Source: an uncultured Nitrospiraceae bacterium (GTDB lineage: Bacteria; Nitrospirota; Thermodesulfovibrionia; Thermodesulfovibrionales; SM23-35). Taken from it: a stretch of DNA of 64,000 bases. Location of the stretch: NCBI GenBank assembly GCA_963727775.1, contig CAVSHB010000004.1, positions 312,589 through 376,588 on the forward strand, written 5' to 3'. The notes beneath the pieces were generated by a model. The model was not told the DNA's origin. It was given only the letters and a program-made list of their open reading frames with translations, and made no database searches. A program made the translations under genes and the position numbers. How positions within the stretch are numbered: position 1 is the stretch's first letter; each line of letters starts with the position of its first letter. Positions 19,208-53,410 of the stretch are shown one piece after another.

Positions 19208-19810
19208 ATGAACCTCCCCGCCGCAGAGACGGCGGGGTATCTCGGAAAACTCTCACCAGCGATGGCATCTTTAAATTTTGAACAGTTTTAGCTGACCTGT
19301 GCGCCGCTCTATTTCAGACTTATCCAAAGTCTGATTCCTTATGTATCGCTTAATCACTTCTTCATTTGTTGCATCCCCGACCGTTCCTATGTCCTTGCCG
19401 TCACTCCAGAATTCTCCACCCCACAATTCTACTTTCTTCATCTTCGGAAATTCTTCGAATACTCGTTTCGCCGTTATCGACTTAATTACGTTCAGCACCT
19501 GACTCGGGCTATATTGCGGTTGAGCACCGCAGAAGATATGTATATGATCCTCATCAAATCCAATTTCATCGATTACAATATTGTACCGTTCAGTAATTCC
19601 CCTCATTGTCTCTCTGATACATTTCTCAACTTCCTCATTCAACAAAACCTTACGGTACTTTACAGCAGTCACCAAATGGTATCGAATCTTATAGACCGCA
19701 TGAGGCCTCTTTCCCAGTTCCATTGTAACAGCATTATAATCCCCCAAACCCCCTTTTCAAAAGGGGGTTCACGGTTTCCCCCCCGCAGAGACAGCGGGGT
19801 TTATAATTTA
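19208..19810 (-). mobile_element. IS200/IS605-family tnpA-only element, copy 1 (603 bp)
   Basis: Subterminal hairpins at both ends. Near-identical to 52808-53410, and the boundaries are set by where the two copies stop matching. Target TTAAT lies 5' of the left end; the right end is TTCAT. Confidence 0.9.
19271..19723 (-). CDS. tnpA: Y1 HUH transposase TnpA
   Basis: YHLV..VKYR, DHIH (HUH), KS.TA, FWS.G, YIRNQ catalytic Tyr. Confidence 0.92.
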   Translation of the reverse strand: MELGKRPHAVYKIRYHLVTAVKYRKVLLNEEVEKCIRETMRGITERYNIVIDEIGFDEDHIHIFCGAQPQYSPSQVLNVIKSITAKRVFEEFPKMKKVELWGGEFWSDGKDIGTVGDATNEEVIKRYIRNQTLDKSEIERRTGQLKLFKI

Positions 19811-19820
19811 ATTAATACTA

Positions 19821-46656: not shown

Positions 46657-47064
46657 TTATTTCCTCTGTTCTAATTCGAACGCCTTCCCTGCTTTGCCTG
46701 CCGCGTTCTCGGCCCTGCTTGCTGCTTCCTCTGCCCTTTTTGCTGCCGCTTCCGCCTTATTCGCCGCTGCTTCGGCCCTTCTTACCGCGGCTTCTGCCTT
46801 CTCGCAACAGTCCTTCGCGATTTTCATCGCCTCCTGGGCCAGAGATTTCGCTTCACGCGCGTCTTTTTTGGCCTCGTCAATCTCAGCAATCTTGCCCTCA
46901 AGCGCGCTTACTCTCGATTCTATAGAAGAGACTCTCGATTCAAGCTTGCTGATTCTTTCAACCAATGGTTCTATCTGCTGACGCACATAATCCTTTGAGG
47001 CGCACCCCAAAAAAAATATCGATAACAAAGGAACCATCAATAAAATCGAAACTGTTTTTTTCAT
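46657..47064 (-). CDS. Alanine-zipper lipoprotein (long paralog)
   Basis: Lipobox FLGC, heptad coiled coil, AEAAA repeats, C-terminal Lys. Confidence 0.75.
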   Translation of the reverse strand: MKKTVSILLMVPLLSIFFLGCASKDYVRQQIEPLVERISKLESRVSSIESRVSALEGKIAEIDEAKKDAREAKSLAQEAMKIAKDCCEKAEAAVRRAEAAANKAEAAAKRAEEAASRAENAAGKAGKAFELEQRK

Positions 47065-47134
47065 TATTTACACCTCCTTTATCACCAAAAAATGCTTTTC
47101 TAAAAAGTTTTAAAATAACCGGTCAAAATTTAGC

Positions 47135-47353
47135 TTATTTTTCCTGCTGCAATTCAAAAGATTTTTCACACTTCTTCGCTGCGTTTTCAGCTCTCCTTGC
47201 AGCCGACTCAGCCCTATCACAGCATTCCTTAGCCTCAAGTTTGCTGATCCGCTCTACGAGAGGCTCCACCTGCTGACGAACATAATCCCTTGAAGCACAT
47301 CCCAAAAGCAAAAGCAATGAGAGAGACATAATTATTAAAGCCGCTTTTTTCAT
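47135..47353 (-). CDS. Alanine-zipper lipoprotein (short paralog)
   Basis: SD AGGAGG, lipobox LLGC; shares CASxDYVRQQxEPLVERISKLE and FELxQxK with its neighbour. Confidence 0.75.
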   Translation of the reverse strand: MKKAALIIMSLSLLLLLGCASRDYVRQQVEPLVERISKLEAKECCDRAESAARRAENAAKKCEKSFELQQEK

Positions 47354-47463
47354 TTCCACCTCCTTTTTTAATGAAAAGCTACCTTTTATCTTTGCCGCTT
47401 GCCTTTTCAAGCGACTCTCCTGCGCTCTCGATGTCTATTCACATTATTTTTCGTTTGAATAAA

Positions 47464-47668: not shown

Positions 47669-48987
47669 TCAATTACCGTGTAACAGTCTTTTGATATTTT
47701 TCATTTCATCGCGGAAAGACTTTGCTTTTTCAAACTGAAAATTCCTGAATGTCTTGATTTCAAGACCGCTGAATGATTCTTTCATCTTGACGGCCCCATC
47801 AATATCTGTCCTGAATATGCGCAGATCCCGCAGCATGTTCAATGTTTCTTCATGCGGATGGCCGAATGAATTATCACGGCCGACGCTGATAACCGCGGCC
47901 TCAGGAGGGACCTCTTTAAGAAAGGATTCACAGGCAGATGTCCTCCCGCCATGATGAGGGACCTTTATGACATCGCATTTAAGCCATCCCCGCAGATGGA
48001 TGATGTCTTCTTGCGCCTCTTTCTCTATGTCCCCGGTAAAGAGAAAAGATGTATGGTTTCCCGCGATCTTCAGTACCAGCGAATCGTTATTTTCCGAAAC
48101 ACATTCGTTCTTGTTCATTGTATAGAATTCAGGGTATGGGTGCAGGACATGCATTTTATATCCGAATCCCTCGATTACGTCTCCTCTACCCAATGAGCGG
48201 TGTTTGATATCAATCAGGAAGTCAGGCAATATAATCCGGCCGTTGTCCCAGAGTTCTTCCACCTTGAATTTTTTTGTAAGGTAATCCGATCCGCCGGTAT
48301 GGTCGGGGTGAATATGGGAGAGGATCAGAGCATCAATAGTCTTCTTCCCCCTATATTTAATGAATGAAGCCGTTTCCCTGCCTGTTTTTCCTGTATCTAT
48401 TACTATGGTTTTTCCGTCAGGAAGTTCAACAACCGATGAATCTCCCTGCCCGACGTCGAGGAAAGTGGGAGTGAGGCTTTTTTTATCGGAGATCGACAAT
48501 AAAAAACAGACTGCTAAAGGGATAAAAGGAATTAACAGTAATTGTTTTCTTTTGTCGAACAGGAAATAGAATAGAAATCCGGCATAAAAAAACACGATTA
48601 TTATCGGCGGGAAAGCCGGTATCTTTATGTCGGCGAACGGTATCCCGGAAAACAATCTCACGAGAAAAATACTTGCATCGGAAACCACGGACACTACGGG
48701 AGTAGTTATGAAGTGGCCTGTAATTAGGAACATAAAAGATGAGATCACGGACAGAGGTATAAGTATGAAGCCTATCAATGGGGCTATGAGGAGATTCGAT
48801 ACGGGAGAGATTATCGAGAAATAGTGGAAATAATACGCCACCAAAGGCGCGGTGCCGATTGACGCCGAAAAGGTCATCAATGAAGCGTCTTTTATGTATC
48901 CGACGATTTTCCTTTCTTCTTTTTTATCGTCTTCGCCGGACCGAACCGAAAAACCGATGAATAACACCGCAAGGAAAGAAAGCTGGA
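47669..48987 (-). pseudogene. comEC: comEC fragment 3 (end of Competence domain + metallo-beta-lactamase domain)
   Basis: QLSFLAV, FLDVGQGDS, LSHIHPDHTGG, NNDSLVL, VPHHGG, FGHPH, RTDIDGA. Confidence 0.92.
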
Positions 48988-50260
48988 GTAAACTACCCTG
49001 CGGCAGAGACCGCAGGGCGTTCAAAAGAACGGATGCGGGCGGCAGAGTTTGCAGTTCCAAGATAAGGAGTAATAGCAGTAGGAGCATGGACTGCGATAGG
49101 TTTGTTTACCGAACCCTTTAAGGCAATATTAATGCTGGCGTTAAGATCAGCGTTTACGGTAAAACCACAGGAAAGACAGGAAAAAACGGATTGAGACTTC
49201 CGGTTGGACTTAGAGATAAAGCCGCATGCGGAACAGGTCCGGGATGTACTGCGGGGATCAACCGTGATAACCGGAATACCCGCTATCTTGGCTTTGTATC
49301 CGATAAAACTGTCCAACTGGAGGAAAGACCAACTGCCAAGCCGTTGCCTATCTGCCTTACGAAACCGTGTCCGAAAGCTTATGCCCTTCAAATCTTCAAG
49401 GGCGATGGCTCTCTCCGTGTCTTTGGCCATAGCAACGATCTTCTTACTGATGCAGTGATTCACATGTTTTCTGAATCGCGCTTCTTTCTTGGCAATCTTT
49501 TTAAGATGTCTCTTAGCGGACTTAGAACCACACTTCTGGAGGTCCCTTCTAATCTTGGACATGCGTTCTCTGACAGCATCGACCTGTTTACCGGAAAATG
49601 TCTCGTTATCCGAAGTGTGGGCTATGCTAACGATGCCCTTATCGACACCAAGTATCCCTATTGGAGTGAACGGGGTGCCGTCAGGCATTTCTATAACTAC
49701 GTTCAAGAAGAACTTGCCGTTCTCAAGGGTAAGGTCGGCCTGTCCTCTCATCCTGTTTTTATCGAGGGAAGCATAAGGTCCCCAAAAGACAATAGGGACT
49801 TTCAGTCTACCATCCACGGAAAGCATGGAGGCAACCTCAAGATTCTTGAAAGACAGAAGCCGTTGGTCATAAACAACTGCAGAGTATTTCTTGAACTTAT
49901 GCAGCACTTTCTTATCAGTGCGATAGGACTGAGATACTTTATCGATCGCGCGCACACAGAGCTGAGAAGAAAGAGGAAATTTGTCACGAACCTCTCTATA
50001 GACAAGATGGTGGAGCGGAACTTGGCTGAACTTGTTATTTTCAAAAGCGACCTTCGATATATAGTTGCAGGCATCATTAAAAGTTGCCATGGTCTTTTTG
50101 AGCGATTGATACTGGTTCGCATTTGGAAGAAGCTTAACCTTAATCGTAAGTTTCATGTGTTTAGTATAGGATATTTTTTATCCATGAGCAAGTCTAAAAC
50201 AAATAGGAGGATGGCTCCTCCCTGTAGCAGAGACTACAGGGTGTCCGCCACACAATTTTA
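48988..50260 (-). mobile_element. IS1341-type (TnpB-only) IS200/IS605 element, 1273 bp
   Basis: Left-end hairpin CCCTGTAG-TCTCTG-CTACAGGG and right-end hairpin CCCTGCGG-TCTCTG-CCGCAGGG. Inserted 3' of TTCAT, ends TTTAC, no target duplication. Removal gives in-frame SPS-F-QLSF. Confidence 0.92.
48993..50156 (-). CDS. tnpB: RNA-guided endonuclease TnpB
   Basis: RuvC D (GVDKG), E (IALEDL), D (NADLNAS); Zn finger CSAC/CLSC; TSRTC. Own promoter TTGCTC-17-TATACT. Confidence 0.93.
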   Translation of the reverse strand: MKLTIKVKLLPNANQYQSLKKTMATFNDACNYISKVAFENNKFSQVPLHHLVYREVRDKFPLSSQLCVRAIDKVSQSYRTDKKVLHKFKKYSAVVYDQRLLSFKNLEVASMLSVDGRLKVPIVFWGPYASLDKNRMRGQADLTLENGKFFLNVVIEMPDGTPFTPIGILGVDKGIVSIAHTSDNETFSGKQVDAVRERMSKIRRDLQKCGSKSAKRHLKKIAKKEARFRKHVNHCISKKIVAMAKDTERAIALEDLKGISFRTRFRKADRQRLGSWSFLQLDSFIGYKAKIAGIPVITVDPRSTSRTCSACGFISKSNRKSQSVFSCLSCGFTVNADLNASINIALKGSVNKPIAVHAPTAITPYLGTANSAARIRSFERPAVSAAG

Positions 50261-51129
50261 ATGAAGGGCTGAACAAGGATTCCGGGTCCCATACAACTAT
50301 TACAAATGCGGCAAAAACCAGTGAATTAAGCCAGAAGCCTTTCCTGCCTATAAGAAGTCCCAGGAGGACTATGCTTATCATAATAAATGACCTGACCGCC
50401 GGAATGCTCGCGCCTGAAAGTCCGAGATATGCAAGCATAAACGGTAGGCAGAACACGGCGGCGATCTGAGAAGGAGTTAGAAAAACTGTTATCCTCTGAA
50501 GGACCCTGTACGGCATTGCGTTAATGAAAAATCTGAACACCCCGAACAACAGCACCGAGAAGATACCGAAATGGCTGCCTGAAATGCTGAGGATATGCGT
50601 CAACCCCGTTATACTAAAAGCATCTTTCGGTTCTTCGCTGATATTTGCCGTCTCGCCTGTTGTTATCGATTCAACAAATGCTCCCGAATCCTTCCCTAAA
50701 TTCTCTTCGATGAATGAATTGACTCTGTATCTGTTTTTTTCGATCATCGAATGCAAAGACAACCTTTGATTTCCTGAATTACGCACCTCTAAAAGGTTCG
50801 CATAAATATCGTCCCTTACCTGCTGCCCCGGATTAAGTCTTTGCCTGCTTCTTAATAATTTGACAATAAAATCATACTCAGTCCCCGCATCCAGCTTTTT
50901 ATCCGAAAACAACATGATTTCTTTTCCGTCCAGCGCATCGATCTTCTCGCCTGCCACGGAATTCACTGCCGACTCTACGGAAAAGGGTTGCCTGACAGTA
51001 CCTGCTTCGGTCTTTACCGGATATGAACTGCAAATACCCTTTACCTCGACATTATCTTTGATATGTGGGACATCGTGCGAAGGTTCATAACGCAAAAGGG
51101 CGTATAGTACCCCCGAAAGGATGAAAATA
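50261..51129 (-). pseudogene. comEC: comEC fragment 2 (DUF4131/OB region + start of Competence domain)
   Basis: TGLTHILSISGSH, GASIPAVRSFIM, WDPESLFSPS. Confidence 0.9.
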
Positions 51130-52807
51130 ATCTGGGAGGAGGTGGTCATAGTGGCCACCCCCTCCCAACAGAACGGCTCGTACCGGCCAGGTAAGCCGCT
51201 CTTCGATCGGTGTTGAACATTTGTTCCAGAGTTTCCTCCGTGACTTCTCGCTTCGTTAAAGATTGCCGGGTTGTGGGTGGCTTTCCGCCGAGAACCGGAC
51301 CTCTGCTGACCTCTTGGATTTATCCAGTCGGTATCTTCGAAAGATTCGAGTATCCCCACTTGGTTTTCTGGTTCCTTCTTTACCTCAACACTAATTCGGC
51401 TCTTTACCGGTGTCACTAACACCTTTCGTCCACAGCTTCCCATATCCCAATCACAACTTCGGGATATCCAGGCATGATGCAGCTACCTGCAACTTCCTGA
51501 TCGTCAGGGTTTTATCCTCCACTCTGTTACCAGGCTTCATCGGCCCTGAGTTATAAGTACTACCTGTGGATCTGCCACCCTCTGCACCCTTCCCGCTTCG
51601 GGTTCTCCTATTCGGTACGGTTTTATAGCGTTAATGACAGCTTCTAACGCCAGCGCAGTAGGGCTTCCCCGGGTAAGACGCACCACCTCACCATATCCCG
51701 TCCGGCTTCACGTCGGTTCGATTCTTCCGGATATCAGGCCTCGCCTATTCACGCCAGCTCGACCTTCTCCCCAACGCCATATAGCCGGATCGCTGTTCGC
51801 TACGGTCGGGTAGGACACAGGTGCAGTAGGTTTAGGCCAAGGACTTTCTGTTTCCCGCCCTTTCGTCTGCGGGTGCCAAAGAACCTCAGACCATGCTCCC
51901 GTTTCCTACATCCCCCACTATAATCCCGGACAGCGGGTTTTCCCCGATCCGGTTTGAAACGGACACTATCCCACCAGCCTTCCCTCATACACCTGCAAGC
52001 TTAAGTGATGGCACACATACACTTGCCATGTACGGGTTTGCTGTATGGCTCACCCTATATTAGGCAGTACAGTTCACGGACGCTCTGTGTCGTCCATTGC
52101 TACCTTGAACATAAGGCGCATCCGCCCAGGGCTCCTTTGCTCTGCAGACATTATATCCGCTTCATCGCTACTACAAGCCCATGCGCCAATCCTGTTGGCT
52201 CTCACTCCTACTTCGGTTTTATCCTTATAAGGAGTGCCCTTTCCGCTTGCTGCCATCCACGGCTGCCAATCAGCACCTTCTCGACTTTATGCTGTTTCTC
52301 TTTCCCGAAGTGCCATGCCCCCTATGTCGGCGGGTCACCAGGTGCTCATAACCAGTTCTTCCCTGATGACTACGGCCTTCACCTCCATGTACAGGCTCGG
52401 CTTCCCGCAACAACCTCACAAAACGGTTTCATGTGAGGGCAGATTTCGCCACGGCAGGCATTCCTTTATGTTACAGCCCTCCGGTTTGCTCGCCTCCCTG
52501 ACCGTTCGGCACCGCTATACGCAGCACCTGGAGACTTCTACACCTGAGCTTCCTGCCAATTCGTTACCTCCTTGGCAGTCAGGTATGCTATCCGGCTGAC
52601 TGGTCAATTGCCGGAACTGGTCTTCCACCAGTAAGAGATACATCTTTGTCGACTGCACTACATGGTTTCTGCCTCATGCTTCCTCCGGACATCCCGTTTC
52701 TGGCAATGCCCTTGCCTTGTTGGCGTTGTCCTTCCGTCCGGTAACGGTGAACTTTTACTTCCGGCATTCCTGCCAGAAGGACGGCGCGTGCGTCATGCCG
52801 GGCGCAC
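51130..52807 (-). mobile_element. ORF-less group IIC intron (outer), about 824 nt excluding the nested intron
   Basis: 5' GTGCGCCCGGCATG; IIC-like DI elements (GGCAAGGG..GGAAGC..GGCAGAA, CTTACCCGGGGAAG); short DV at 51170-51204; DVI hairpin; 3' end ...AT; inserted directly after a hairpin. Confidence 0.85.
51805..52658 (-). mobile_element. ORF-less group II intron (inner, IIB-like), 854 nt, nested in DI of the outer intron
   Basis: 5' GTGCAG; DV AAACCGGATCGGGGAAAACCCGCTGTCCGGGATT (51922-51955); extended DVI ending CCTACCCGAC; EBS1 TACATGG complementary to the upstream CCATGTA. Confidence 0.82.
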
Positions 52808-53410
52808 ATAAACCTCCCGGCCGCAGAGACGGCGGGGTATCTCGGAAAACTCTCACCAGCGATGGCATCTTTAAATTTTGAACAGTTTTAGCTGACCTGT
52901 GCGCCGCTCTATTTCAGACTTATCCAAAGTCTGATTCCTTATGTATCGCTTAATCACTTCTTCATTTGTTGCATCCCCGACCGTTCCTATGTCCTTGCCG
53001 TCACTCCAGAATTCTCCACCCCACAATTCTACTTTCTTCATCTTCGGAAATTCTTCGAATACTCGTTTCGCCGTTATCGACTTAATTACGTTCAGCACCT
53101 GACTCGGGCTATATTGCGGTTGAGCACCGCAGAAGATATGTATATGATCCTCATCAAATCCAATTTCATCGATTACAATATTGTACCGTTCAGTAATTCC
53201 CCTCATTGTCTCTCTGATACATTTCTCAACTTCCTCATTCAACAAAACCTTACGGTACTTTACAGCAGTCACCAAATGGTATCGAATCTTATAGACCGCA
53301 TGAGGCCTCTTTCCCAGTTCCATTGTAACAGCATTATAATCCCCCAAACCCCCTTTTCAAAAGGGGCTTCACGGTTTCCCCCCCGCAGAGACAGCGGGGT
53401 ATATAATTTA
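52808..53410 (-). mobile_element. IS200/IS605-family tnpA-only element, copy 2
   Basis: Near-identical to 19208-19810; inserted 3' of TTGAT within comEC codon 44. Confidence 0.92.
52871..53323 (-). CDS. tnpA: Y1 HUH transposase TnpA
   Basis: Protein identical to copy 1 in the ORF track. Confidence 0.92.
   Translation of the reverse strand: MELGKRPHAVYKIRYHLVTAVKYRKVLLNEEVEKCIRETMRGITERYNIVIDEIGFDEDHIHIFCGAQPQYSPSQVLNVIKSITAKRVFEEFPKMKKVELWGGEFWSDGKDIGTVGDATNEEVIKRYIRNQTLDKSEIERRTGQLKLFKI

Follow-up and report, generated by a model that had tools for sequence, protein, structure and literature searches.

Does the RNA-guided nuclease encoded by a transposon inside the competence gene comEC keep competence switched off, or does it merely keep the transposon in place? 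An earlier note on this DNA held that an intact TnpB, with a predicted guide against the repaired comEC allele, would cut excision revertants and incoming wild-type comEC and so enforce a competence-off state. We favour ordinary selfish retention of the tnpB element in a decaying competence gene, with an incidental effect on competence, and give this reading a probability of about 0.75. The window analysed is the whole 64-kb stretch C4:312589-376588 of a 3.43-Mb genome (4 contigs, 96.8% complete); unless a contig is named, all coordinates are positions in this window.

Anatomy of the interrupted comEC gene

The gene comEC is encoded on the minus strand, behind glmM; no other Competence-domain gene was detected in the genome. 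Its coding sequence is divided into three pieces (Table 1), which are interrupted, in order from the gene start, by an IS200, a group II twintron and, beyond the middle piece, the tnpB element; the gene thus holds two IS200/IS605-type elements plus an intron pair. The pieces, all free of internal stops, add up to 2319 nt, which is divisible by 3, and the flanks of the tnpB element are mutually in frame at a motif that reads SFQLSF in relatives, where comEC is a single open frame of about 750-890 codons. The splitting of comEC by the tnpB element had already been recognized, in an account that dealt with this last insertion only and left the upstream IS200 and twintron unmentioned. The long ORFs at 49087-47669 and 51443-50178 were rejected as separate genes, being comEC pieces that enter or start within mobile DNA. 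A 5.8S rRNA match at 47080-47226 (27.5 bits, gathering threshold 42) was taken as chance.

Table 1. Features of the comEC locus, from the gene start onwards (window coordinates)
Feature	Coordinates	Strand	Details
comEC 5' piece	53541-53411	-	131 nt
IS200, tnpA only	53410-52808	-	603 nt, after TTGAT; right-end changes at 52819 and 52810
ORF-less group II twintron	52807-51130	-	1678 nt
Twintron outer intron	52807-52659 + 51804-51130	-	IIC-like short domain V
Twintron inner intron	52658-51805	-	854 nt
comEC middle piece	51129-50261	-	869 nt, without stops
Left-flank target motif TTCAT (core TCAT), predicted TAM	50265-50261	-	CTTCAT precedes both genomic copies; TCAT kept in homologues
tnpB-only IS200/IS605 element	50260-48988	-	1273 nt, without target duplication; ends from second copy and X2 empty-site joint
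Left-end DNA guide GACA and 8-bp hairpin	50245-50242 (GACA); 50241-50220 (hairpin)	-	GACA fits TCAT by the IS608 pairing rule
Candidate leaderless promoter	50191-50163	-	weak -35 TTGCTC (50191-50186, 3/6), 17-nt spacer, -10 TATACT (50168-50163, 5/6), ATG 6 nt on
tnpB ORF	50156-48993	-	387 aa; RuvC D172/E254/D337; zinc finger C308/C311/C327/C330
Predicted omegaRNA scaffold	49109-48988	-	closing helix, stem, terminal hairpin
Scaffold closing helix	49109-49104 with 48993-48988	-	
Scaffold stem	49097-49049	-	
Scaffold terminal hairpin	49017-48996	-	after DNA guide AACG
comEC 3' piece	48987-47669	-	1319 nt, without stops; rest of Competence domain and metallo-beta-lactamase domain
Predicted 16-nt guide (right flank)	48987-48972	-	comEC coding strand; guide length from PMC8612924

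The comEC IS200 carries an 11/12 promoter at 53360-53333. Its two right-end changes, at 52819 in the hairpin and at 52810 in the cleavage motif, are absent in the five copies compared base by base and in a sixth, and may hinder its own excision. The outer intron of the twintron begins at the first base past the IS200 right end; related introns in genomes G088 and G181 likewise begin right after hairpins of the same type, that of G181 behind a tnpA-like tail. Rfam returns two group II domain-I matches in the twintron (RF02003 and RF02001). The bounds of the inner intron, which contains the complement of its own 5' junction, are defined by contigs of two sequencing runs, X3 (two contigs) and X4 (one), that skip exactly 51805-52658. 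The outer intron is IIC-like by its short domain V, in line with part of PMC7923331; it has lost the reverse transcriptase (RT) ORF, of which the relative in G088 keeps a 420-aa version. Splicing of the twintron would not rescue comEC, since it would take away nothing but the twintron and the IS200 would stay.

The tnpB element

The tnpB element is inserted in comEC directly after TTCAT. A second copy (C2:869072-870345) is 99.8% identical, has other flanks and is likewise preceded by CTTCAT; it differs from the comEC copy by one extra base, which lies in an A run and shifts the frame of tnpB, and by one change in the right hairpin. This copy is intergenic, outside comEC, and stands beside an ORF that we take to be PIN-domain-like. 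One contig of the public sequencing run X2 joins 48986 to 50260 and skips 1273 nt (a single contig at depth 2.1, with 72 nt on the short side and a likeness threshold of 85%). The different flanks of the second copy and this empty-site joint together fix the element ends at 50260 and 48988. The joint is an empty allele in related DNA, which fits excision or never having carried the element. In the search of sequencing runs none contained half of the window, and no RNA run was among those listed.

The element has the hallmarks of the IS200/IS605 family, namely subterminal hairpins (50241-50220 and 49017-48996) without terminal inverted repeats. Its single long ORF is tnpB and tnpA is absent, an arrangement that presumably corresponds to the IS1341 type. 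In the pairing rule of IS608, a DNA guide beside the hairpin is set against the cleavage motif. Here the right-end guide AACG matches TTAC, and most homologues have CAAG with TGAC instead; as judged from these ends, motif and DNA guide agree with each other and change together among homologues. The fit of GACA to TCAT and of AACG to TTAC removes a one-base ambiguity at the junction and bears out 48987 as the first base of the guide, the position proposed earlier.

Two resident tnpA-only families, of 7 and 6 copies, share their hairpin loop with the tnpB element, and its right-end hairpin is identical over 22 nt to that of the family with 6 full-length copies. The six-copy family is the likeliest mobiliser of the element, and the TnpA of both families is presumably compatible with it. 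An IStron, in which a group I intron would rescue the gene by splicing, was rejected, since no Rfam match falls within 48988-50260 at E up to 1 and the left end and the tnpB ATG are only about 100 nt apart.

The TnpB protein, its predicted RNA and its candidate promoter

The tnpB ORF scores 177.5 bits against the NCBIfam model for RNA-guided TnpB (NF040570, cut-off 100). The catalytic residues D172, E254 and D337 and the zinc-finger residues C308, C311, C327 and C330 are invariant in 10/10 aligned sequences (10 of 13 rows kept; L035, which has a stop, L045 and L047 dropped), in agreement with the earlier report that three RuvC residues and a zinc finger are present, and they coincide in alignment with the catalytic motifs known from Cas12f structures. 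The sequence relation to PDB 8bf8, which we take to be ISDra2 TnpB, is distant (E 2e-8). The ORF falls below the NCBIfam cut-offs for Cas12f2 and for the IS200- and IS607-specific models. A Cas12f or type V CRISPR effector was rejected, with NF049972 at 161 bits against a cut-off of 450 and the protein lying between transposon ends; so was a nuclease-dead TnpB repressor (TldR) or host-domesticated protein, the triad being intact and the guide having no other genomic target. It was also correctly noted before that the ORF runs into the right-end hairpin: tnpB crosses 49017-48996, and its stop at 48993 leaves 5 nt to the end of the element.

As judged by folding and covariation, the right end is an omegaRNA-like scaffold that overlaps the 3' end of tnpB. 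Folding of the final 125 nt together with 16 nt of flank gives a z of -4.45, none of 200 shuffles being as good, and a longer 256-nt window gives -2.08. In an alignment of 12 sequences, including the 11 homologues whose right end could be located, the six-pair closing helix is paired in 71 of 72 cells, and in 5 cells both bases have changed; because the helix was picked from this alignment, the slid control favours it. The terminal hairpin differs from those of the homologues.

The element might be intact in sequence yet silent or nearly so, with a decayed promoter, little TnpB or omegaRNA and no cutting. We regard this as unlikely. In the candidate promoter the -35 box is TTGCTC, where TTGACA occupies this register in 14 of the 26 homologous loci read by eye; its -10 box and the spacing to the ATG are, against this, conserved, and the IS200 promoter upstream could read through. 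The earlier statement that the gene has its own promoter holds, accordingly, for the -10 box and ATG spacing and is weakened by the -35 box and by a promoter scan (8 sites found against 6.2 expected) in which the site was unlisted. The scaffold carries a 31-nt insertion that is absent in 11/11 aligned homologues, set against a conserved RNA helix and conserved catalytic residues, and although the second copy is frameshifted, the 99.8% identity of the two suggests recent activity.

Target motif and predicted guide

We fetched 49 homologous loci and read the left ends by eye in 26 of them. The motif before the left end is TCAT in 17/26, TCAC in 3/26 and unclear in 6/26; one homologous element found in 4 distinct flanks follows TCAT in all four, with C, T, C and A at position -5 (T in 1/4). 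As these flanks read, the insertion motif is TCAT, with T common before it. The core of the TAM is probably TCAT as well, if the TAM equals the insertion motif as in other systems; a whole-word search of the literature gave no match for TCAT as a TnpB TAM. TCAT occurs at 34 sites in comEC, counting both strands; an insertion there therefore calls for no special targeting.

The earlier note had pointed out that TTCAT plus guide matches the empty comEC site. The match is true, with a motif core of TCAT rather than TTCAT, and it carries no information, since in every IS200/IS605 element the left flank supplies the TAM and the right flank the guide. The guide matches comEC only because comEC is the flank, and the second copy likewise matches its own empty site. 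A search of the whole genome for a second target of the comEC guide next to TCAT (up to 3 of 16 nt mismatched, or a perfect run of 9 nt) gave 0 sites, and the guide of the second copy has 2 three-mismatch sites next to TCAT. The comEC guide is, by this search, one with no regulatory or second target. Among the comEC genes of relatives from other genera (n=19), the TAM with a perfect 12-nt match occurs in 0/19, TCAT in 6/19 and TCAT with one mismatch in 12 in 1/19; comEC from other genera would mostly escape the predicted cutting.

Probable retention of the element in a decaying competence gene

Selfish retention would proceed as follows. A non-autonomous, tnpB-only element would have landed at a TCAT site in a comEC gene that the lineage no longer maintained. 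A resident TnpA could excise the element in trans and close the gap behind it. TnpB, carrying an RNA that joins the right end to about 16 nt of comEC flank, would next cleave this repaired copy, whereupon the element would return through recombination with the sister chromosome. In this scheme the anatomy, boundaries, residues, RNA helix and other lesions are those observed here, and expression, TAM, cleavage and repair would be as in the literature. The mobilising TnpA and the neutrality of the site are read from the sequence.

Two near-identical copies with different flanks, one of them outside comEC, speak for retention, as do the 22-nt hairpin identity with a resident tnpA-only family, the covarying end motifs and scaffold helix, and the donor-joint cleavage shown for other TnpBs. 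So does the distribution of related elements: only 5 of 36 IS200/IS605-type insertions are flanked on either side by at least 60 open codons, compared with 296 of 500 positions taken at random (the 36 were found by end motifs, with a few variant elements outside the patterns, and the comEC IS200 is not among the 5), from which it follows that such elements survive mostly outside working genes. Other competence genes are also damaged. A frameshift ends dprA at 268 aa, where 20/20 relatives are open over 313-400 aa, and comF is frameshifted too; these shifts likewise favour retention when set against a background of 1/103 orthologues. Some of the frameshifts may be assembly errors, since tex, which is not a competence gene, is shifted as well and the shift in the second tnpB copy lies in an A run. 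Searches for comEA with two families did not find it, and the best match of both was tex, so that absence is not proven thereby.

Against retention stand the weak -35 box, the lack of stops in comEC, and intact comM, pilQ and four pilT-family genes. Since the comEC pieces are without stops, they may have been interrupted only recently, possibly by the tnpB element before the others. The crowding of comEC fits a dispensable gene and equally fits the published conflict model, this being a single genome, in which neutral accumulation and selection against competence yield the same anatomy.

The nuclease as a possible lock on competence or drive against transformation

The claim of the earlier note amounts to a competence-off lock; as a selected trait, such a lock would protect the many mobile elements of the genome against curing by transformation. 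The first half of the claim, cutting of the empty site, is to be expected by analogy with other TnpB systems; enforcement of a competence-off state is unsupported, and we consider the lock very unlikely. Because the IS200 and the twintron remain in comEC, loss of the tnpB element alone restores nothing, and with two further comEC insertions and the dprA and comF frameshifts a lock would be redundant. The effect of the element on competence is incidental because comEC is broken even without it. Nor does cutting of incoming wild-type comEC stand, since with the sole comEC broken such DNA has no transformation route.

The genome is rich in mobile elements, as the 36 IS200/IS605-type insertions attest, the empty allele occurs in related DNA (X2), and a TAM is not needed when TnpB cuts matching single-stranded DNA, according to parts of PMC10278001 and PMC8612924; these points favour a lock. 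A conflict model, too, has been published, and several elements lie in the comEC of Piscirickettsia salmonis (PMC12955456 and PMC11472951, in part). Recurrence at competence genes is what the survey data speak against. The second copy sits elsewhere, comEC sequence lies near 0/49 homologous tnpB loci (many flanks being short), and a close TnpB occurs in only 2/300 other genomes of the class. A Competence match was found in 141/150 other genomes of the order, none of them split by a kilobase insertion on one contig, in draft assemblies where contig-end and no-match cases could hide a split comEC. On these same counts (comEC in 1/2 genomic copies, 0/49 loci, nothing alike in 150 genomes) a competence-targeting element, as AbaR is in comM, was rejected.

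A one-way drive of the tnpB element against transformation, with the other lesions in comEC, dprA and comF as later decay, is likewise highly improbable. We give still less credence to its outbound form, in which released DNA would enter competent kin, the element would recombine into comEC, TnpB would cut the wild-type sister and the null allele would spread: it follows from homing (PMC8612924, in part), it has a parallel in TnpB-driven biased inheritance in plasmids (bioRxiv 2025.02.20.638934, in part), and run X2 contains empty, near-identical comEC pieces, but the case is a single genome, recurrence was not seen among the 150 genomes of the order, and the native host is not known to be transformable. 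If a drive were true, it would place an active RNA-guided weapon in the conflict between mobile elements and transformation; the element would enter by the uptake route that it destroys, the insertion would be copied onto the sister allele that TnpB cuts, and the converted lineage would no longer be curable of mobile elements.

Relation to known systems

Selfish retention by TnpB is a known mechanism, and the location in comEC alone adds none. Cutting of the donor joint by TnpB was proposed by Karvelis et al. 2021 (PMC8612924) and shown experimentally, with increased element retention, by Meers et al. (bioRxiv 2023.03.14.532601). ISDra2 TnpB as described in the former resembles the present one in an ORF overlapping the right end, a guide of about 16 nt from the flank, a TAM equal to the insertion motif and a donor-joint target, features that apart from the overlap are predicted here; ISDra2 carries tnpA and uses TTGAT, unlike the element here, which is without tnpA and uses TCAT/TTCAT (PMC8612924).

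The ISGst elements of Geobacillus stearothermophilus, in the sections on them in bioRxiv 2023.03.14.532601, are likewise tnpA-less and mobilised in trans by one TnpA, in a genome that, like this one, also holds short non-coding PATE elements. Cutting of the scarless donor joint by ISGst TnpB and the raised retention were measured there and are only predicted here, and the ISGst elements are, unlike the comEC element, not in a competence gene (bioRxiv 2023.03.14.532601).

Disruption of competence genes by mobile elements is itself known, for comEC in Piscirickettsia salmonis and streptococci (PMC12955456 section 15) and for comM in Acinetobacter baumannii (PMC11472951, in part), and inactivation of comEC is described in the latter source as lowering the signal below the transformable threshold. 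Piscirickettsia salmonis is the nearer likeness, with several distinct elements in one comEC and an element-rich genome (PMC12955456); its lesion is species-wide, against one genome here, and the relevant part of that text mentions neither TnpB nor IS200. Our search of the literature on TnpB with comEC or natural transformation turned up no account of comEC carrying a tnpB element, and this location may be unreported.

The locus offers a clean natural example of TnpB retaining its own element and of a competence gene serving as a mobile-element dump, and its protein is a candidate small nuclease with a probable TCAT motif. By motif alone, of the TCA type, it can be likened to AmaTnpB, whose TAM is TCAC in the part of Nety et al. 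2023 (PMC10278001) that deals with it, and that same TCAC precedes the left end in 3/26 of the homologous loci read here.

Element ends and their surroundings

The tnpB element within comEC seems to have taken over the ends of a local transposase: the loop of both its hairpins is that of the TnpA families of the source genome (G000), not that of its closest homologues, and a 31-nt insertion sits ahead of its right hairpin. In the candidate promoter of tnpB, the spacer is occupied by a 5-5-5 inverted repeat, which could be an operator or a product of chance. Other mobile-element genes lie near the second copy of the element on C2 (C1, C2, and C3 being the other contigs of this genome).

Coordinates of features in the window and on the other contigs
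Feature	Location	Strand	Remark
tnpB element hairpins	window 49017-48996, 50241-50220		
5-5-5 inverted repeat	window 50183-50169		
tnpA-only IS200 copies	window 53410-52808, 19208-19817 region; C1 and C3		in comEC; second window copy; other five
Group II twintron	window 52807-51130	minus	without ORF; starts exactly at IS200 right-end junction
Lipoprotein-like gene pair	window 46657-47410	minus	
Second TnpB, 399 aa	L021 (C2:860-876 kb locus):4703-5902		unrelated; <10 kb from C2 copy
IS607-type serine resolvase and another TnpB-like match	L021:18453-19079		<10 kb from C2 copy

IS200 copies, introns, and miniature elements

Seven near-identical copies of the 603-nt tnpA-only IS200 are present in the source genome. 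Two right-end changes are unique to the comEC copy; they lie directly before the intron and give a better match with a candidate exon-binding site. The copy at C3:336918 contains a 1.6-kb element, which carries an ORF of 461 aa. Introns homologous to the comEC twintron are found in genomes G088 (locus L094) and G181 (locus L098), likewise 3' of IS200/IS605-type right-end hairpins.

A PATE-like non-coding element of 141-148 nt, with a left hairpin of IS200 type and terminal TTAT, occupies 21 sites in the source genome (e.g. C1:439675), inserted 3' of T-N-A-T-like motifs; at C2:495561, it forms a 141-nt in-frame insertion within a glycosyltransferase-like membrane gene. At C2:781123, the right end of one miniature element is followed by sequence similar to the 5' end of a decayed group II intron.

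Competence-related and neighboring genes

No comEA gene was found in the source genome using two families, and dprA, comF, and tex (the last not a competence gene) are each frameshifted (L079:1282-2088 on C3, L084 at C3:378k, and L085 at C2:296k). The window also contains two small lipoprotein-like genes in tandem, which are related to each other (71% identity across a 105-nt stretch) and have coiled-coil repeats rich in alanine.
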